Shown: in pieces, positions 54,106-64,000 of the stretch
Position numbering within the stretch: the stretch's first letter is position 1
Layout: the number at the start of each line of letters is the position of its first letter
Assembly (NCBI GenBank): GCA_964537935.1
Contig: CAZICT010000001.1
Coordinates: 134,870 to 198,869 of the forward strand
DNA length: 64,000 nucleotides
DNA from: an uncultured Candidatus Saccharibacteria bacterium
GTDB lineage: Bacteria > Patescibacteriota > Saccharimonadia > Saccharimonadales > CAZICT01
Reading direction: 5' to 3'
Notes under the pieces: generated by a model
Database searches by the model: none
Seen by the model: the letters and a program-made list of their open reading frames with translations, nothing else
What the model was told of the DNA's origin: nothing
Made by a program: the position numbers and the translations under genes

Positions 54106-54891
54106 TCACTTTTTGGTTCTTCTTTCAGGCAATAGGAAAAACGATCCAATCCATAAAAATATCGCGCCGAGCCAGCCGAAAATCCATGTCCAGCGCCCAT
54201 GCGTCCGGACCGTTCTTGGCCACATCATAAGGTTGCCGTAAAGTGCTTTTCGATTTTTAAAAATGCGCTTCATTTCCAGTTCTACACGCAAATTTTCTTT
54301 GTAGGTTATTTGATAACCATGCCGGTGCAAATGAATAGCCAGGTCCAAATCTTCATGAATATCATTTCGTAAGCAAACCTTATCCCTAACAGCTTTCCAT
54401 GCTGTGTTTGGTAGTGCCATATTCGAGCCCCACAAAATATAGTGCCCCAGCAAAAATCGATTAACCCGAAAAACTATTTGCCCCTGAACCCAACCATTTA
54501 TCGGCTCCGGGGGGAAACTGACGTTATAAAACACCCCGTTGCCGGTCAATGCATGATTCTTATGGTCGGTTTTGCTATAGAAATCTTTTACATACCTAAC
54601 CCAGTTAGCGGGTAATATGGTATCCGCATCAATCCTGCCGATTATATCTGATGTAGCAGCATTAAATCCGGCGTTCCTGGCGAATATTATGCCTTGGTTT
54701 TCCTCACGCAAAATACGTACAAATTTAAATTGCCTGGCAAGTGTAGCTGTTTTATCGGAAGAATTGTTATCAACTACGATAACCTCGTCAGGCATGACCG
54801 ACTGCCTGGCTATAGCTTCAAGACAAGCCTGGATATGGCCTTCTTCGTTATAAGCTGGTATAACTATTGATAACGTTAATGCTTTTTGCAT
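54106..54891 (-). CDS. Glycosyltransferase family 2
   Basis: SIVIPAYNEE, VVDNNSSDKT and GRIDADT motifs. I start at MQKALTL (54891). The ORF track extends to 54939. Confidence 0.85.
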   Translation of the reverse strand: MQKALTLSIVIPAYNEEGHIQACLEAIARQSVMPDEVIVVDNNSSDKTATLARQFKFVRILREENQGIIFARNAGFNAATSDIIGRIDADTILPANWVRYVKDFYSKTDHKNHALTGNGVFYNVSFPPEPINGWVQGQIVFRVNRFLLGHYILWGSNMALPNTAWKAVRDKVCLRNDIHEDLDLAIHLHRHGYQITYKENLRVELEMKRIFKNRKALYGNLMMWPRTVRTHGRWTWIFGWLGAIFLWIGSFFLLPERRTKK

Positions 54892-54918
54892 AATCATAAT
54901 ACAGATAGATAGTAACAG

Positions 54919-56067
54919 ATGCCTCGAACAAGCAAGCAAGCTTCACTGAAAAAACCAGCACGTAAAAAACCGAAGAAAAACGATTCGTCATGGAAATCGA
55001 GAATAATCGGTTTATGGACAAATGGCGGTTGGCTACGCCGGAGCATAATAGTATTTTCTGCACTTTTGGTGCTGTGGGTTGGCGTTCTGTACGGAATTGC
55101 TCAGTGGTACATATTAAGTAATGCCAACAAGCCTATGAAGTACGGAGCAACCTTTATTCCTTCTTATGCTCGATATTTTGATCTTGATCCTAAAGAAACA
55201 CTAAACGCGATAATACACGATCTTGGAATAAAGCAGCTTAGGTTAGTTAGCTATTGGTCAGTCGGTGAACCAAATCGAGGCGAATATGACTTCAGCGAAC
55301 TGGACTGGCAGATGGAGATGGCGGAAAATACCGGATCAAAAGTCAGCCTTGCGATTGGTTTGCGGCAGCCGCGTTGGCCTGAGTGTCACATGCCTTCCTG
55401 GGCAGAAAAACTTCCGATGAGTGAATGGTCAGTGGAACTCAAAAAATACATGAAAGCCGTAATCGAGCGCTACAAAGACAGCCCGGCGCTTGAAAGTTAT
55501 CAGCTTGAAAATGAATTTTTCATGACAGTATTTGGAATCTGCCCGGACCACAGCCGAGAGCGTCTTATTGACGAGTACGAGTTTGTTAAGCAATTAGATT
55601 CATCGCGACCGATTATTATTAGCCGCAGCAACAACGCCATTGGAATACCTATAAACGATCCCCAGCCAGACATATCGGCTGTATCTGTCTATAAGCGTGT
55701 ATGGGATAAAACTATTACTAAACGCTACTTCGAATATCCATTCCCGTCATGGTTTTATGCGATGCTTGCCGGAGCAGGGAAGATAGTGAACGGCAACGAT
55801 ATGATAATTCATGAACTACAGGCCGAAGCCTGGCTGCCGGAAGGATTTCAGATGAATGATGTAAACGATATTCCAGAGCAGGAAAAATCCCTGAACGCCA
55901 AACGACTACGCGACCGCATTGAGTACGGCAGGGCTACGGGCATGAAAGAAATGTATCTTTGGGGGGTAGAATGGTGGTACTGGCAGAAAGAAAAAGCCGA
56001 TAAACCCGATCTTTGGAACGTCGCCAAAGAAGAATTGTCACGTATAGCCGCCTCATCCGATCAGTAA
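54919..56067 (+). CDS. Membrane-anchored TIM-barrel glycoside-hydrolase-like protein
   Basis: Basic N-terminus plus one TM span. Clan-A-like catalytic motifs are QLENEF (acid/base NE) and IHELQAEAW (candidate nucleophile). The family is not resolved. Confidence 0.55.
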   Translation: MPRTSKQASLKKPARKKPKKNDSSWKSRIIGLWTNGGWLRRSIIVFSALLVLWVGVLYGIAQWYILSNANKPMKYGATFIPSYARYFDLDPKETLNAIIHDLGIKQLRLVSYWSVGEPNRGEYDFSELDWQMEMAENTGSKVSLAIGLRQPRWPECHMPSWAEKLPMSEWSVELKKYMKAVIERYKDSPALESYQLENEFFMTVFGICPDHSRERLIDEYEFVKQLDSSRPIIISRSNNAIGIPINDPQPDISAVSVYKRVWDKTITKRYFEYPFPSWFYAMLAGAGKIVNGNDMIIHELQAEAWLPEGFQMNDVNDIPEQEKSLNAKRLRDRIEYGRATGMKEMYLWGVEWWYWQKEKADKPDLWNVAKEELSRIAASSDQ

Positions 56068-56110
56068 CTGATTACACGCCAGTGAATGTCTTTAGGTTAC
56101 AATAGGCAGT

Positions 56111-56572
56111 ATGGCCAAGAAGAAAAAGCAAGCTCCCGGGGTTATCTCTAACCGGCGGGCAAGATATGATTATGAACTCGACGATACGCTGATTGTCGGT
56201 GTTGTGCTTAATGGTGCCGAAACAAAATCACTGCGGCGCGGTCATGGTCATTTGCGCGGCGCTTACGTTACCGTCAAGGACGGCGAGCTATGGCTCACCA
56301 ACTCTACTATAGTCGGCGATAATTCTATAAGCATCGATGAATCTGACCAGACACGTCCACGTAAACTACTTGCTAAGCGCAAACAAATCCAGGAACTTGA
56401 GGCCGCTAAACAACAAGGAAAGACTATCGTACCGCTAGAGTTTTTAACCAAAGGCAGGTTTATAAAGCTGCGCCTAGCTGCCGGTCGCGGCAAAAAACAC
56501 TACGACAAACGGCAAGCTCTGAAGGAGCGTGACGCTGCACGTGATGCCAGTCGCGTGCATAGACAGCGGTAG
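56111..56572 (+). CDS. smpB: SsrA-binding protein
   Basis: ISNRRARYDYELDDTLIVGVVLNGAETKSLR ... LLAKRKQI ... KHYDKRQALKERD, typical of SmpB. Confidence 0.95.
   Translation: MAKKKKQAPGVISNRRARYDYELDDTLIVGVVLNGAETKSLRRGHGHLRGAYVTVKDGELWLTNSTIVGDNSISIDESDQTRPRKLLAKRKQIQELEAAKQQGKTIVPLEFLTKGRFIKLRLAAGRGKKHYDKRQALKERDAARDASRVHRQR
56510..56556 (+). repeat. Direct repeat copy 1 (inside the smpB 3' end)
   Basis: CGGCAAGCTCTGAAGGAGCGTGACGCTGCACGTGATGCCAGTCGCGT recurs exactly 180 nt downstream with 3 substitutions. Confidence 0.85.
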
Positions 56573-56689
56573 CGGTTTGTTGTCGTAGTGTAACTACGAT
56601 ATTCGAGCGATCAGCAAGAATATATGCCGAGCCCAAAAGTAAATCATTCGTTTTTAAAGCTAAATTTTCTTGGCGCGAAGCTATACAAG

Positions 56690-56736
56690 CGGCAAGCTCT
56701 GAAGGAGCGTGACGCCGCCCGTGACGCCAGTCGCGT
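56690..56736 (+). repeat. Direct repeat copy 2 (displaced smpB 3'-end-like sequence)
   Basis: CGGCAAGCTCTGAAGGAGCGTGACGCCGCCCGTGACGCCAGTCGCGT. It sits in a 43-codon ORF (ATG ~56622) ending ...KLYKRQALKERDAARDASRVLRPR*. Confidence 0.85.
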
Positions 56737-56755
56737 ACTAAGACCAAGATAAAAT

Positions 56756-57892
56756 TTATTCCTCTTCGCTAACGGTTAGGTCTAAGCCTTCTTGTTTGTG
56801 GTCGCGTTCTGCAAAATGTTTAATGATGTTTTCAAAAGTCGTTTCGTAGCTTTCCACCATTTTTTCGGTTGAAAAGTTGCGCTGCACGTGGCGGCGGCAG
56901 GCTTTGCGGTCAATTTGGTCAATTTTTTTGACTGCACTGGCCATTTCTTCAACTGTATCAACCACAAAACCGGTGCGGCCATCAACCACAACCTCTGGTA
57001 CCGAACCGCGATGAAACGCCAAAACTGGCGCTCCGCAGGCCATAGCTTCAACCATCGTCAACCCAAACGGCTCTTCCCACTGAATAGGAAATAGTAGCGC
57101 CTTGGCCCGTTTATAGTAATCAGCTAGCTTAGCGCGTTCAACAAAGCCGATGTGCTTGATCTGATCTCCTAAATAAGGCTTTGCCACTTCGTCAAAATAC
57201 TCTTGAGCTGCCGGGTACAACATACCGACGATTAATAGCTTGTTGTTGGTTTCTAAAGCTACCTGTACTGCTTCTCTTAAACCTTTTTCTGGTACGATTC
57301 GTCCGGAAAACAGCAGGTAGTCATCGTGTTCTTCAGAGAAGGGAAACATGTCCAAATTGATGCCATTGTAGACCGTCCCGGCGTATGGCAGGTTCGGCCT
57401 GGGTTTACGTTGGCTGTCTGATATAGAAATGAAGTACTGGTTGTGATGTAGGTACATGCCAAAGATGTCGCACTTCCACGGCGTCAACGGGTCATGCAAA
57501 GTAAAAGCTACCGGTACGTCCGGATATATTTGAGTAAACGGCAAGGCTATTTCCGGATGGTGAAAATGGAGCAGGTCGTAGCGGCCTTCGTGGGCAGCTT
57601 TAAACATTTCACGCGCCAGGAACATATCCCACATCGCCGGCACGTTGTTCATTTGTGATTCGACGTTATAAAGAAAGTCCACCCATTCGTCTTGATTTTC
57701 AACGAGAGTCCTCAGACCCATGGTTTGAACCGCAGTGTGCAAATGAGTGCCTTCCGGACCGTAAAACTCAACGGCGTGTCCGCGGTCAGCCAGGCCTTCG
57801 CTAATATCAACTGCAAGATCAATCGGTGCGTACACCATATCAGAAGGACGAGGTACCGGCAGGTAGCCTCGAACCATTGTAGCTATTCTCAT
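56756..57892 (-). CDS. Glycosyltransferase family 4 (GT-B)
   Basis: FSGRIVPEKG and the E-x7-E region EPFGLTMVEAMACGAPVL. I start at MRIATMV (57892). The ORF track extends to 57934. Confidence 0.85.
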   Translation of the reverse strand: MRIATMVRGYLPVPRPSDMVYAPIDLAVDISEGLADRGHAVEFYGPEGTHLHTAVQTMGLRTLVENQDEWVDFLYNVESQMNNVPAMWDMFLAREMFKAAHEGRYDLLHFHHPEIALPFTQIYPDVPVAFTLHDPLTPWKCDIFGMYLHHNQYFISISDSQRKPRPNLPYAGTVYNGINLDMFPFSEEHDDYLLFSGRIVPEKGLREAVQVALETNNKLLIVGMLYPAAQEYFDEVAKPYLGDQIKHIGFVERAKLADYYKRAKALLFPIQWEEPFGLTMVEAMACGAPVLAFHRGSVPEVVVDGRTGFVVDTVEEMASAVKKIDQIDRKACRRHVQRNFSTEKMVESYETTFENIIKHFAERDHKQEGLDLTVSEEE

Positions 57893-58010
57893 ATCCCAGT
57901 AGTTCTCTCGTTTTGTTAGCAATACCATTGTCACATTAAATCTTTTGATTGTAAAGCTTTAAGGGGTAAGAAGTTGCTGTTTATTGACTTTTAGTATATA
58001 ATTATTAATA

Positions 58011-58559
58011 ATGAGACGTTTTCTGGGGGTCATGCTCTTGGTTGTTTACGCATGGCTTGGCGCATCTATAATTAATGCTTTTTCGTCAACGCCATCAGGC
58101 GCTACTGGCGTTACGCTGTCTGCCCAAACGCCGCATCAATTTGCTTCAGTCAAAGCTACTAAACTTTTGGAGGAAATCAATGCGGTGCGCGCTGGGCAAA
58201 ATTTGCCTGAATTAGCGGCCGATAGTGAGCTTGAAGCCATAGCCAGGCTGCGGGCTGACGATATGGTTGAGCAAAAATATTATGCACATCAAAGCAGTTC
58301 GGGTAAGTTTTACTTCGATTTATTAGAAGACCATGGACTGCGCCAGGGGTACAGCTGTGAAAACCTCGACCTATCAGATAAAGAAAATGTACGCTTTTAT
58401 TTGAATGATTGGCTCACCAGCCGGGAAGGTCATCGTCAGTGCATGCTGAATAGCCGGGTAAGCAAGGTGGGTATATTTGTTACAGATTTCCCGAACCTCG
58501 GCTCAATGCCGGCTAATACCCAAAAGCAGTACCTGGTCGTAGCCATATTTCAGGAGTAA
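58011..58559 (+). CDS. Secreted CAP/SCP-domain protein
   Basis: Signal peptide, then the pattern LEEINAVRAGQNLPEL ... RLRADDMVEQKYYAHQS ... SCENL ... SREGHRQCML. Confidence 0.8.
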   Translation: MRRFLGVMLLVVYAWLGASIINAFSSTPSGATGVTLSAQTPHQFASVKATKLLEEINAVRAGQNLPELAADSELEAIARLRADDMVEQKYYAHQSSSGKFYFDLLEDHGLRQGYSCENLDLSDKENVRFYLNDWLTSREGHRQCMLNSRVSKVGIFVTDFPNLGSMPANTQKQYLVVAIFQE

Positions 58560-58634
58560 TTAGGCTTGTCGTACGCCTAAGGCTTCGATATAATTGCACA
58601 GTCACAATCAGGTGTGATAAGCATTAATTAATAA

Positions 58635-58709
58635 TCCCGGGTAGCTCAATGGTGGAGCAAGAAGCTGTTAACTTCGAGGTTGCCGGTTCGAGTCCGGCCC
58701 CGGGAGCCA
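58635..58709 (+). tRNA. tRNA-Asn (anticodon GUU), CCA encoded
   Basis: Cloverleaf: TCCCGGG / GCTC-AATGGTG-GAGC / AGAAG-CTGTTAA-CTTCG / AGGTT / GCCGG-TTCGAGT-CCGGC / CCCGGGA-G-CCA. Confidence 0.92.
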
Positions 58710-58711
58710 AA
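58694..58711 (+). repeat. att-type direct repeat, copy 1 (3' end of tRNA-Asn)
   Basis: CCGGCCCCGGGAGCCAAA. Confidence 0.8.
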
Positions 58712-58839
58712 AGAAAGCGAGTCAGGTTTTAATCTGGCTCGTTTTCTTTTCGTTCCGAGAATCGGAACACTCGAACCGGAGGTTCGGTCATCAGTCACAG
58801 CCCCCAGCGAAGCGGGCGACTGGATTGATGTGCGTTTGC

Positions 58840-58857
58840 CCGGCCCCGGGAGCCAAA
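58840..58857 (+). repeat. att-type direct repeat, copy 2
   Basis: An identical 18-mer, CCGGCCCCGGGAGCCAAA, 146 bp downstream of copy 1. No tRNA body precedes it. Confidence 0.8.
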
Positions 58858-59064
58858 CCAAGCAGTGAAAAACCCTGACCGGGTTCCGTGACCAAAAGTC
58901 ACGTTCACTCCTTAGTCAGCCAAGAAAGCAAAGTGCCGATTACAAGGCACGACAGGTTAGAACCGCCAGAAACGGCGGTTCTTTCCTTTCCACCCTGTTA
59001 ATTGGTTCCTGAGTTGACCGGTTTGCCCTATGGGGATTGTGCAGCCGAAACCCAGACCGGGTTC

Positions 59065-60072
59065 CTAGACCGACATCACCTTTTGAAGATTCAGTAGGGG
59101 CTGGGTTTCCGCTGTCGCCAACAGCTGATTTGCCAGTATACGTTTGCGTGCCTTTTCCACTATGGCCTGTCGCTTCAGCCCTTTTTGGCTGGCTAAAATC
59201 ACGCGCTCTGGAGCTATGGATATCCTGAGCTTTCTACCGTTCAGGATGACCCTACACTCTGTGCTCCCCAGAATAGCTTCCGCTGTCTTTACGGCCTCGT
59301 TGGCCGAAAAGACATCTCGCTGTAGCTGGGTGTTTATCACGACCGTATTTATGCCGGGATTATTCCTGAGGTACTCAACAAGCTTTACCCGCTGGTGATC
59401 ATTGACCGCGTAGACATGCGGGATTACCGGCACGCCCAGCCTACTTAGCTCATGTACGTACAAGAGTGACTTATTTAGGTTAATCAGCTGCCCCATGGGG
59501 CACTCGTGCAGGAATAGTGAAAAGTTCATGCCGGTAACAGCATAGAATTTACCCTTAGCTATCTCTTGGAAAAGTGCTATTTCATGCCTATCAAACCATA
59601 GTTTTTCAATGGCAACATCTATGTAGCTGCTGAATAACACAACCTTCTTGCCCTGGAAAACAGGCCTATCTAATGCAGATAGAGATATGCGAACACCGTC
59701 ACGCATGTAGTAGTGGCCCCAGCGCAACTTGGGCTTAGTGCTCAGTATATCCTTGAGGTTTATGCCAACTATTTCTGGGAACCGCTCCGGTTCCCAGTCA
59801 AAACATTCCGGCGGGATCACGACTAAGTCATCCGGTAATGTCGGCGACCCGGTTGCTATGGTTTTATTGGCAAATTCCAGCCCACCAGCGTCTGCTATAT
59901 ACTCCTGCAGGTCGGCACTATGGCAGTCCACGATGCCTCGGTTGTCGCCGGGGCATCGATCACGCACGAGTGCTTTTTCATCTGCACCTATGAGGCCCGG
60001 GACACATGAATCCGAGTCACAGTACATGCTCGCGAACAGCGAGGACTGATTACTAGCGCCTAATCTCCGCAT
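59065..60072 (-). CDS. Hypothetical 335-aa protein: N-terminal Cys cluster plus a DUF4417-like body
   Basis: The N-terminus has CDSDSC...C...C. The central and C-terminal region (VVLFSSYIDVAIEKLWFDRHE ... AVTGMNFSLFLHECPMGQLINLNKSLLYVHELSRLGVPVIPHVY) resembles the DUF4417 pattern as I remember it. This has not been checked against any database. Confidence 0.6.
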   Translation of the reverse strand: MRRLGASNQSSLFASMYCDSDSCVPGLIGADEKALVRDRCPGDNRGIVDCHSADLQEYIADAGGLEFANKTIATGSPTLPDDLVVIPPECFDWEPERFPEIVGINLKDILSTKPKLRWGHYYMRDGVRISLSALDRPVFQGKKVVLFSSYIDVAIEKLWFDRHEIALFQEIAKGKFYAVTGMNFSLFLHECPMGQLINLNKSLLYVHELSRLGVPVIPHVYAVNDHQRVKLVEYLRNNPGINTVVINTQLQRDVFSANEAVKTAEAILGSTECRVILNGRKLRISIAPERVILASQKGLKRQAIVEKARKRILANQLLATAETQPLLNLQKVMSV

Positions 60073-60403
60073 AGCGCACGCCCTTCTTGTCCATAACCTC
60101 GGCCTCTTTGTATGTGTAGCCTAGGCCACCACACTCTTGCACCATCTTGTGCTGTGCTGCGGTAAGCTGTCCAGCAATCGTACCTACGGCGGTTTTTAAC
60201 AGTCTTTCGTCTAGGGTCAGTTTTGTACCGACCGGTATAGTTTGGTCACTTAGTTTAGCGTCAAAAGCCAGCGGGCAGATGTTATTTATGTCCACTGACT
60301 GCGGGCTGGAACCGGCACCGCCAGTTCCCATGCCTACGCTACTTGATTTTGGCCTATTAATGACAGGCCGGTCATTCGCCTTACGGCTTCCGGATGATCC
60401 CAT
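60053..60403 (-). CDS. Hypothetical 116-aa protein, first gene of the two-gene operon
   Basis: The N-terminal ~45 aa are Gly/Ser/Pro/Arg-rich. The C-terminal ~70 aa look globular. It overlaps the downstream gene by 20 nt. Confidence 0.55.
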   Translation of the reverse strand: MGSSGSRKANDRPVINRPKSSSVGMGTGGAGSSPQSVDINNICPLAFDAKLSDQTIPVGTKLTLDERLLKTAVGTIAGQLTAAQHKMVQECGGLGYTYKEAEVMDKKGVRYAEIRR

Positions 60404-60710: not shown

Positions 60711-61451
60711 ATGCAGATGGGTGTTGGGAAGAATCTTACCAACCTGCGCAAGGCTTCTGGCCTGAGTCAGGATGATGTTGCTCGTGCCCTAGGGATTACG
60801 AGGCCAGCATACAAACAACTTGAAACTGACGGGCGTGAGCCATCGATTGCTGAGATAAATGCACTGAGCGAGCTGTTCGGTGTGCGTGTCGAGGACTTGA
60901 CCAGTACATCCATATTACACAAAACCATCATAACCATGACAAACTGGGATGGCATAGAACAGAGCGTCGATAAGATTAAGTACAAAAACCTTATGCTTTA
61001 TCTTGCCAGTAGAGTTGGCGCGTGGCCAAATGTAGGTGAAACGGTATTCTATAAGCTGATTTATTTTATTGAAACCTTATCTTACTCCAAGAATAAGAAG
61101 ACTATTACTGGCGAGCGATTCCGTAAACTACAATACGGTCCCGTACCAGCATCTTTCCAAACGCTCACGCAAGAAATGATTAACAGTGGGGAGTTGGACA
61201 AAGTTCAGGGCCGGTACTTTACCTACATGCAGACAAAATACTTGCCACGAGTGGAAGCAACCGGATTAACTCCAGAGGAGCGAACCATTATAGATACGAT
61301 CATCAACAAGCTGGGCAGCGAATCTGCTACTTACCTGTCTAACTTGTCACACGAAGACAAGCCTTGGCTTGACGCAGAAGACAATGACTACGTTGATTTG
61401 TCGCTAATTAGTGATACCGACCCTGAAGCCGCTCAGAAAATGGGACGTTGA
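60711..61451 (+). CDS. HTH-XRE regulator fused to a DUF4065 (Panacea/SocA-type antitoxin) domain
   Basis: N-terminal HTH (LRKASGLSQDDVARALGITRPAYKQLETDGREPSIAEINALSELFGV), then KYKNLMLYLASRVG...FYKLIYFIETLSY...TGERFRKLQYGPVP, typical of DUF4065. Confidence 0.8.
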   Translation: MQMGVGKNLTNLRKASGLSQDDVARALGITRPAYKQLETDGREPSIAEINALSELFGVRVEDLTSTSILHKTIITMTNWDGIEQSVDKIKYKNLMLYLASRVGAWPNVGETVFYKLIYFIETLSYSKNKKTITGERFRKLQYGPVPASFQTLTQEMINSGELDKVQGRYFTYMQTKYLPRVEATGLTPEERTIIDTIINKLGSESATYLSNLSHEDKPWLDAEDNDYVDLSLISDTDPEAAQKMGR

Positions 61452-61457
61452 TAGCAC

Positions 61458-62162
61458 CTACTTTCTCTTGCTAATGCGCGCTATCTCTAGCGCACCATTT
61501 CGTAGCTGGAGTTTGGTTTTTATGCCAGTCGCAAATACCGTTCGCTCGGCTTCAGTACCTCGAACAAGTATGTACCTTGAGTACTCCACGAACGGTATGT
61601 CTAGCGGTTGCTCTAGGCTGTAGTGCTCCAGCAGGGTCTTAGTTACTTGGTAATGCCGCTCTACCTTTGACCGCAATTTATCGCTAATATTTATGTCATC
61701 ATGGTTCTTTTCAATAAACTCTTGCAGTAGCACGCATAAGTCTTTTTCGTTGATATATTTTTCCGTGCAGTCTCGATCTACTCGGCGTGTGCAATTGTAG
61801 TAGACGTGACGGTTGAACTCGCCATTCTTCAGCTTTTTGAACTTTTCCTGTGCAGTAAACTCGGCACCGCATTGACCACACTTTATTAGTCCACGGAATG
61901 CAAACTGCTTCGTTCCCCATAAGCCTTTATTGATGCCGCGTGTCTGCTGGATTTCATCAAACAGCTCTTTGGATATCAGTGGCTTGTGCGCTCCTTTGTA
62001 CCATTTCGCATCTGGACCCTCCGGGTATTGAAATTCTCCGTAGTAGAACGGGTTCGTTAGCATCGCCAGTAGACTGCTGATTGGTACGGGCTTACCGCTT
62101 TGTCGGTACGGTGAATGCAGCCTATCCAGCAGCAGGGACGGCGTTTGCCCTCGACAAGTTCC
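61458..62162 (-). pseudogene. Large serine recombinase, 5'-truncated (catalytic resolvase domain missing)
   Basis: Recombinase-domain and zinc-ribbon motifs are present (LTNPFYYGEF ... CGQCGAEF ... YYNCTRR). The frame stays open upstream of the annotated Met (…GKPVPISSLLAMLTNPF) to a stop at 62163-62165. No S-R catalytic N-domain is present. Confidence 0.75.
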
Positions 62163-62356
62163 TTACATGTTCTTTTGATGCGGCGCTTGCGTGTTTCTAT
62201 TTGCTTGGCGTTTTCTACCCAACAGATGAATTCATTACGGGCGAGCGGCGTTATATCTTCCCAGGCCTCCAGGGCTTTAGCATCGGAGGTAAGTGCCTCG
62301 CGCAAATCAGCCGGCAATTTATGGACTACGCCTTCAGAAATTACTTTTGTTGCCAT
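62057..62356 (-). CDS. YdeI/OmpD-associated-family (DUF1801-related) small protein with an aberrant C-terminal tail
   Basis: LPADLREALTSDAKALEAWEDITPLARNEFICWVENAKQIETRKRRIKRTCKELVEGKR matches the family pattern. The last ~25 codons read through the recombinase remnant in another frame. Confidence 0.6.
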   Translation of the reverse strand: MATKVISEGVVHKLPADLREALTSDAKALEAWEDITPLARNEFICWVENAKQIETRKRRIKRTCKELVEGKRRPCCWIGCIHRTDKAVSPYQSAVYWRC

Positions 62357-63631: not shown

Positions 63632-64000
63632 CATACACAGAAAGCGATTTGATAGTACCGGTCTTATCACTCCTCGCGGAAGCGGGTGAGCAAGGCATGA
63701 CAACGACTGAAATTAAAGATACGCTATTAAATCAATTGGAACTTTCCGAGGAAGATTTACGAATCTTAAGCGGCCGTAGTGATTCGCATTTCAGTCAGCA
63801 GGTGCGCAATTTAGTTTCGCACGATACATTAACCAGGAAAAATTTGGCACGTTACGAACCGGGTCGTCCCAGTGGACGATTCTGGATTACAAAAAAGGGC
63901 AGGGAATATCTGTCGGAACATTCCGGCGATTTCGAATTCCTGGTAAGCAGCGGATTCACTGAGGCACAACGCAAGGCGGTTATTGAAACCGATTTTAAAG
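63628..64000 (+). CDS. Partial CDS: winged-helix (Mrr-N-like) N-terminal domain protein, probable restriction partner (3' end beyond the window)
   Basis: The ATG overlaps the methylase stop (ATGA, 63628-63631). The N-terminus LIVPVLSLLAEAGEQGMTTTEIKDTLL...QVRNLVSHDTLTRKNLARYEP...WITKKGREYL resembles the Mrr-type N-terminal winged helix. Confidence 0.55.
   Translation, partial: MTYTESDLIVPVLSLLAEAGEQGMTTTEIKDTLLNQLELSEEDLRILSGRSDSHFSQQVRNLVSHDTLTRKNLARYEPGRPSGRFWITKKGREYLSEHSGDFEFLVSSGFTEAQRKAVIETDFK

Follow-up and report, generated by a model that had tools for sequence, protein, structure and literature searches.

An orphaned 3′ end of tRNA-Asn marks a recombination joint beside a conserved serine-recombinase backbone in a Saccharibacteria genome

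In the window, by which we mean the whole stretch of 64,000 nucleotides analysed here, the 3′ end of the tRNA-Asn gene is present twice on the plus strand, as an exact 18-mer (CCGGCCCCGGGAGCCAAA) at 58694-58711 and again at 58840-58857. Comparison with related genomes leads to the robust conclusion that the second copy is the orphaned stub of a tRNA-Asn that once capped the downstream backbone of conserved genes, and that was displaced by DNA bringing a complete tRNA-Asn. As to the mechanism, we favour a recombinational patch, also describable as a 3′-displacement scar, to which we assign a probability of about 50%. The orphan tRNA end is a real and non-random feature and a recombination scar of an ordinary kind, and the scar itself has no evident function.

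The complete tRNA-Asn(GTT) gene, with an encoded CCA, was located by ARAGORN at 58635..58709 on the plus strand and scored 63.6 bits in Rfam; a promoter-like TTGTCG-17-TATAAT element lies upstream of it at 58566-58594. Copy 1 of the direct repeat (58694..58711, plus strand) comprises the 3′ strand of the T-stem, the 3′ strand of the acceptor stem, the discriminator G, the CCA and two A residues, and its left edge coincides with the boundary between T-loop and T-stem. An earlier note, made from the letters of this DNA, had reported the exact recurrence of the 18-nucleotide end, which we confirmed at both sets of coordinates. It had divided the repeat into 15 nucleotides of tRNA and three A residues, a division that has to be corrected, as the gene boundaries given by ARAGORN leave the last 16 nucleotides of the tRNA, CCA included, followed by two A. 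Copy 2 (58840..58857, plus strand) is, as that note had also stated, preceded by no tRNA body: neither ARAGORN nor Rfam in E-value mode detected one, and the 5′ half of tRNA-Asn occurs a single time in the window. A search of the window that allowed up to three mismatches returned no further copy of the 18-mer. The count expected from shuffled sequences was 0.04, and two copies were found in none of 100 shuffles. The repeat does not continue significantly into the trailer or the flank (p = 0.56), and no repeat of the 3′ end of tRNA-Gln was found.

The flanking genes place the genome in the Saccharimonadales (Patescibacteria/CPR), and relatives of the locus were found by means of homologues of the 335-aa ORF that adjoins copy 2. 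The loci recovered in this way, in which the 335-aa protein shares 89% (L163), 77% (L162), 72% (L164-L167) and 63% (L170/L171) amino acid identity with that of the window, carry a complete tRNA-Asn directly joined to AACCAAGCAGTGAAAAA...GACCGGGTTCC. In the window this sequence stands after copy 2 and not after copy 1. The window is homologous to L163 at the nucleotide level from 62099 leftwards, and this homology ends exactly at 58840; the extra DNA of the window amounts to 146 bp, which are missing in five lineages of the Saccharimonadales. Since the tRNA-Asn of the relatives abuts the same DNA that flanks copy 2, copy 2 is the original tRNA end, and the stub is still contiguous with its ancestral neighbour. 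The comparison with empty tRNA-Asn sites proposed in the earlier note was thus borne out in five lineages: there is an insertion polymorphism at this site and no ancient fixed duplication.

The two copies of the repeat are separated by a spacer of 128 bp (58712..58839, plus strand), which is non-coding, contains four stem-loops and is missing in all relatives. The two perfect short hairpins noticed previously proved to be real, namely GTTCCGA-GAA-TCGGAAC at 58752-58768 and CGAACC-GGA-GGTTCG at 58772-58786, and a terminator-like long stem lies at 58710-58727/58732-58749; the fourth hairpin occupies 58787-58832. Folding of the region 58710-58860 gave a free energy of -68.7 kcal/mol (z = -5.5 compared to shuffles). 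The spacer had no homologue elsewhere in the window or in the loci retrieved, and pieces of it gave only chance matches of 17-23 nt in IMG/VR. Rfam detected no known RNA family in the spacer or in the leader of the downstream backbone.

The terminator loop is also the centre of an imperfect palindrome of 97 nt (58683..58779), whose left arm consists of the 3′ 29 nt of the tRNA plus an 18-nt trailer and which spans 58693/58694, where the 18-mer has its left edge. The global score of this palindrome was 21, compared to -10 ± 4 in shuffles. By manual count, 58730-58779 mirrors 58683-58729 in 36 of the 47 aligned bases (~77%), and the minus strand at 58748..58779 holds an inverted copy of the 3′ end of tRNA-Asn, diverged in sequence. 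This copy includes an exact 11-mer at 58769-58779 that is the reverse complement of 58683-58693, a part of the T-arm that lies outside the 18-mer. No inverted copies of the tRNA end were found in the relatives. At the divergence shown by the palindrome, a perfect 18-mer would be found with a probability of ~0.01 according to our own calculation. Given an inverted copy at ~77% and a perfect 18-mer, the palindrome is older than the repeat; the complete tRNA-Asn and the spacer appear to belong together as an old unit, whereas the joint at 58839/58840 appears to be younger.

An arrangement of this kind, with direct, inverted, (weakly) direct and again direct copies within 175 bp and a palindrome of 97 nt, is what a local error of replication or repair could produce, if fold-back and serial template switching had generated first an inverted and then a direct copy without any foreign DNA. 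We consider this origin highly improbable, given that a local template is lacking for about 45 nt of the spacer (58813-58839 and the 18-nt trailer), and that the inverted copy is far more diverged than the 18-mer, which would call for several events of different ages. It would also leave unexplained a second stub, that of smpB, and the block of two genes that lies between the stubs.

This second orphaned gene end is located 2.1 kb upstream of the tRNA stub. A direct repeat of 60 nt consists of the 3′ end of the intact smpB gene (56505..56564, plus strand) and an orphan smpB 3′ end (56685..56744, plus strand). The two copies are 88% identical, and their differences are mostly synonymous. A repeat of this length and identity, with changes of the synonymous type, is typical of two orthologous alleles and not of an att core. 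No tmRNA gene was detected in the window by ARAGORN. The orphan stub abuts the 3′ end of a GT4 glycosyltransferase gene (56756-57934, minus strand), 3 nt from the GT4 stop codon, and GT4 probably represents the ancestral downstream DNA with which the stub has remained contiguous. The gene of a CAP-domain protein (58011-58559, plus strand) likewise lies between the two stubs. At smpB as at tRNA-Asn, a complete gene is followed by an orphan 3′ fragment on the same strand, which is the pattern of 3′ displacement.

In L164 and L167 the gene order is smpB, tRNA-Asn and backbone, and GT4 and CAP are absent there (L164). The DNA missing in L164 comprises the smpB stub, GT4, CAP, the tRNA and the 128-bp spacer, and it is exactly bracketed by the two stubs. 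A second type of the locus exists in L001, which has the order smpB, CAP, GT4 and tRNA-Asn with an immediate terminator, and its tRNA promoter (GCTTCGATATAATT) is that of the window; CAP and GT4 stand there in the order opposite to that of the window. The best homologue of the CAP protein among 5.8 billion proteins showed 47% identity, and the best match of GT4 reached 69%, compared to 89% among the backbone relatives. When GT4 was used as a synteny anchor in genome and metagenome collections, the best matches were 69% and 59% identical and synteny was mostly lost. Relative to strain L169, the window has 30 SNPs in 54134-56272 and 3 in 56273-58661. The density thus falls at about 56272, within smpB, from 14 to 1.3 per kb, a step that indicates the putative boundary of a recent recombination tract over the locus.

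According to the favoured reading, an older copy of tRNA-Asn would once have stood directly against the serine-recombinase backbone, as it still does in the relatives. An incoming segment would then have been joined to position 60 of the older tRNA, bringing a complete tRNA-Asn together with the palindromic terminator and about 128 bp of downstream DNA that belonged to it; the older tRNA would have lost its 5′ part and kept its 3′ stub. We infer that the insert most likely came from the same locus in a related member of the Saccharimonadales, as a fragment of ~2.2 kb carrying the smpB 3′ end, GT4, CAP, tRNA-Asn and the terminator, and that a single event may account for both the tRNA stub and the smpB stub; the palindrome, too, would be explained in this way. 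Entry would have been by natural transformation, and splicing probably by non-homologous or homology-facilitated illegitimate joining. Natural competence has been shown for Saccharibacteria (PMC10633639), and orphan 3′ ends resulting from displacement or homology-facilitated illegitimate recombination are a known pattern (PMC5361080).

[quoted passage not shown] The window shows the displacement pattern twice, in smpB and in tRNA-Asn, and belongs to a naturally competent host group. In contrast to those loci, the genes concerned are a housekeeping tRNA and smpB, the stub holds 16 nt of the tRNA gene, and no selective logic is evident. Several observations weigh against the recombinational patch. 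The edge of the 18-mer lies in the register of an att core, a coincidence of roughly 1 in 70 if illegitimate joining were random; fragments are rarely joined illegitimately at both ends; and no donor genome with the 128-bp sequence was found. Moreover, the 112 bp that follow smpB are only marginally similar to the smpB-tRNA intergenic region of L164 (p = 0.03-0.12), and the reversed order of CAP and GT4 in L001 does not match the proposed insert. A resemblance of the same 112 bp to the tRNA promoter was also considered and was not retained, being marginal only.

The register of the 18-mer leads to the explanation closest to that of the earlier note, namely that the repeat is an eroded att scar. 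Here, an element encoding a P4-like tyrosine integrase and bearing an attP core of 18 bp (expected attP, ...GCGTTTGC + 18-mer + AGAAAGCG...) would have restored tRNA-Asn on integration and subsequently lost its interior, leaving 128 bp in the manner of a CIME, and the smpB stub would be an unrelated second scar. The repeat is exact, equals the 3′ end of the tRNA and leaves the tRNA gene intact, as an att scar does; empty sites exist in relatives; and the spacer provides a terminator right behind the tRNA. The strongest support comes from the 17-bp att core of the enterobacterial asn-tDNA islands. The Yersinia HPI, ICEKp1 and GIE492, which have P4-like tyrosine integrases, use the same register, the 16 terminal nt of tRNA-Asn and 1-2 further bases, and both their 17-bp CCAGTCAGAGGAGCCAA and the 18-mer of the window begin directly after GGTTCGAGT, the tRNA being kept intact. 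Besides this 17-bp core, integrase-less modules flanked by repeats and tandem accretion have been documented for the enterobacterial asn-tDNA islands (PMC2801613, PMC4891358), both of which would suit an integrase-derived scar at this tRNA.

Compared to those islands, however, the window has no integrase, no cargo, only 128 bp between the repeats and no second island-end repeat, and its host belongs to the CPR. No Pfam match to a tyrosine recombinase was obtained among 30 scanned ORFs of the window, nor was any present in the Pfam table of genes called in L161, a contig that extends 6 kb past the window end. Between the repeats we found no cargo and no mobile DNA, but 128 non-coding bp with hairpins. 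The third copy of the 18-mer that the earlier note had suggested looking for beyond position 64000 did not turn up in the window, in the 6 kb beyond it (L161) or in the 10-kb flanks of the relatives, and searches of IMG/VR with the 18-mer and with a 23-mer from L161 returned no parent element. In addition, 11 T-arm bases of the palindrome lie outside the 18-mer, so that the element would need to have carried a longer, inverted segment of the tRNA, and a scar of the same shape in smpB would have to be assumed as an independent event. An eroded att scar is, in our judgement, the main alternative to the recombinational patch, though a less likely one. What stands of the att-type integration scar proposed earlier is a displaced tRNA 3′ end at a recombination joint; the integrase, the cargo and the third copy are absent. 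The palindrome and the smpB stub fit the recombinational patch at least as well as a putative site-specific integration.

On the other side of the joint, the backbone begins with a conserved non-coding leader of ~205 bp (58858..59064, plus strand). The left end of this backbone was found joined to DNA other than a tRNA in three cases. In L181 (2261-2330) and L183 (1456-1520), at 73-74% identity, the leader is joined to non-tRNA DNA, with the breakpoint immediately to the left of GAGCCA or GGGAGCCA. The left arms of these two loci are mutually homologous over ~46 nt (p about 0.006); an interpretation of the arms as decayed tRNA was unsupported. The third case is L161, a Logan contig of the same strain, which shares 99.98% identity with the window along 5151 bp from 58850 onward. 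At 11224-11246 of L161, GTTCGCAACGTGTCCGCTACTGC, a run of 23 unrelated bases, replaces the window sequence left of GAGCCAAAC; the break is again just left of GAGCCA, and there is a C-to-T change at 58859. This junction variant is not the product of precise excision, and it suggests that the junction is heterogeneous in the population. Homology of the 23-mer to the left arms of L181 and L183 or to the window spacer was not significant. Taken together, the breaks in L181, L183 and L161 place the backbone end at the last 6-8 nt of tRNA-Asn, and on this basis the left end of the backbone is a predicted recombination site. The 18-mer reaches 10 nt deeper into the tRNA than the backbone end, and copy 2 therefore derives from a tRNA-plus-backbone junction and not from a bare backbone end.

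These junctions bear directly on a further explanation, tandem accretion through the serine recombinase itself, in which a second island of the same family would have entered at the tRNA-Asn end and been deleted except for its termini, in an SCCmec-like manner. Serine recombinases of the SCCmec type leave repeats of 15-18 bp of the 3′ end of the gene, the backbone is located at tRNA-Asn in five lineages despite differing upstream genes, and L181, L183 and the L161 allele join its end to non-tRNA DNA. We nevertheless regard this course of events as very unlikely. The boundary seen in the family is 6-8 nt away from the end of the tRNA, as against 16 nt here; what stands before copy 2 is tRNA-type bases (CCGGCCCCGG) and no element arm; the recombinase of the window is devoid of its catalytic domain; and no core repeat was found at the far island end in any locus. 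Nor was any right-end site for a serine-recombinase island identified in the loci examined. That the large serine recombinase played a part in duplicating the 18 bp is unsupported.

The likeness of the backbone to SCCmec at rlmH/orfX concerns its organization. Both combine a large serine recombinase with variable methylase, restriction and defence cargo, both lie, in many genomes, against the 3′ end of a conserved gene, and recombinase-less, degraded versions exist. Unlike SCCmec, the backbone has a tRNA as its target, no flanking repeats were found, and the recombinase is three genes away from the junction. It is conceivable, though we hold it to be unlikely, that we are dealing with an undescribed Saccharimonadales family of serine-recombinase defence islands whose att site is the last 6-8 nt of tRNA-Asn, and that the 146 bp, with their inverted and direct copies of the tRNA end, are the fossil of repeated or hairpin-type recombination there and not the product of a tyrosine integrase.

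The leader contains two direct repeats of ~34 nt, at 58861-58893 and 59038-59071, which are 178 bp apart, have the form GCAG..GAAA.. and share the core GACCGGGTTCCKWGACC; the second overlaps the stop codon of the 335-aa gene. An intrinsic terminator is also present in the leader (58959-58982). The ~34-nt motif is kept in L161-L164, L181 and L183, down to 63% protein identity, and was found nowhere else in the loci, and it could be a candidate binding site for the recombinase or a regulator.

Next to the leader lies the conserved 335-aa gene (59065..60072, minus strand), whose product is a distant relative of DUF4417. Its AlphaFold2 model (pLDDT 90) is a TIM barrel with a weak likeness to tRNA-guanine transglycosylase (TM 0.43). 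The idea that this neighbour is a hidden integrase was rejected on account of its TIM-barrel, DUF4417-like fold, and no viral relatives of the protein were found. The 335-aa gene is always accompanied by a conserved 116-aa gene without family match (60053..60403, minus strand) and by a divergent HTH-Panacea gene, which in the window encodes a backbone protein with HTH (XRE) and SocA/Panacea domains (60711..61451, plus strand). This set of three may constitute a DNA- or RNA-modifying module or one of toxin-antitoxin-like type. In a 52% relative, L172 (13794-15743), the trio of HTH, 120-aa and 344-aa genes was observed away from tRNA-Asn; the same locus has an ORF for a serine recombinase of 551 aa that overlaps a tRNA-Gly(CCC) on the opposite strand, next to tRNA-Thr and tRNA-Asp.

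The large serine recombinase of the window is present as a C-terminal fragment of 201 aa (61458..62063, minus strand), which matches residues 226-418 of the intact 421-aa protein of L163. Since the catalytic resolvase domain is missing, the protein is catalytically dead; the gene is intact in relatives. A gene of the OmdA/YdeI family sits where the catalytic domain should be, and homology to L163 stops at ~62099 (61458-62356, minus strand). The cargo that follows the backbone varies from relative to relative, and includes D12 and N6_N4 methylases, HaeIII-type restriction-modification genes, an SNF2/PLD protein with an Eco57I-type methylase, and ParB-methylase fusions. The window has a D12 Dam-like methylase in this place, with an HNH gene past the window end, and this cargo is unlike that of every relative. 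A cargo-free backbone was observed in L182 (593-686), where the start codon of the recombinase lies 93 bp from a Formyl_trans_N gene; this minimal version can help to delimit the unit on its right side.

We also analysed the GC content, as the earlier note had placed the start of a GC-rich island immediately after copy 2. The spacer and leader have a GC content of 0.53 and the first two genes 0.51, compared to 0.45 in the rest of the window, and values of 0.43-0.46 are regained from 60.4 kb on. GC is thus raised there, but only mildly. The proposed island edge holds in the sense that a mobile-looking backbone begins at this point; that backbone, however, is the ancestral neighbour of tRNA-Asn and no arrival borne by the duplication.

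Among the Logan contigs of the same strain and in L169, no independent assembly spans 58665-58849. L168, the companion Logan contig of L161, matches the window with 100% identity over 6540 bp. The same-strain Logan contigs end inside the 5′ half of the tRNA, L168 and L169 both stopping there, and L161, almost identical to the window from 58850 on, has 23 other bases to the left, as would be seen if the joint had arisen in assembly or belonged to a minority variant of a mixed population. No k-mer capable of mediating a false join is shared, however, between copy 2 and the sequence to its left, so that reads must hold the junction, and breaks of contigs at the tRNA are expected where co-occurring strains share tRNA k-mers. 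We find an artefact or minority variant hardly credible.

Collectively, these results show how a textbook-looking att repeat can mislead, as here it probably marks the splice of two versions of one locus, and the 'island' beside the repeat is the old neighbour of the tRNA. They document a recombination hotspot at tRNA-Asn in the naturally competent, ultra-small Saccharibacteria (CPR), and they draw attention to a conserved serine-recombinase backbone with restriction and methylase cargo that varies.
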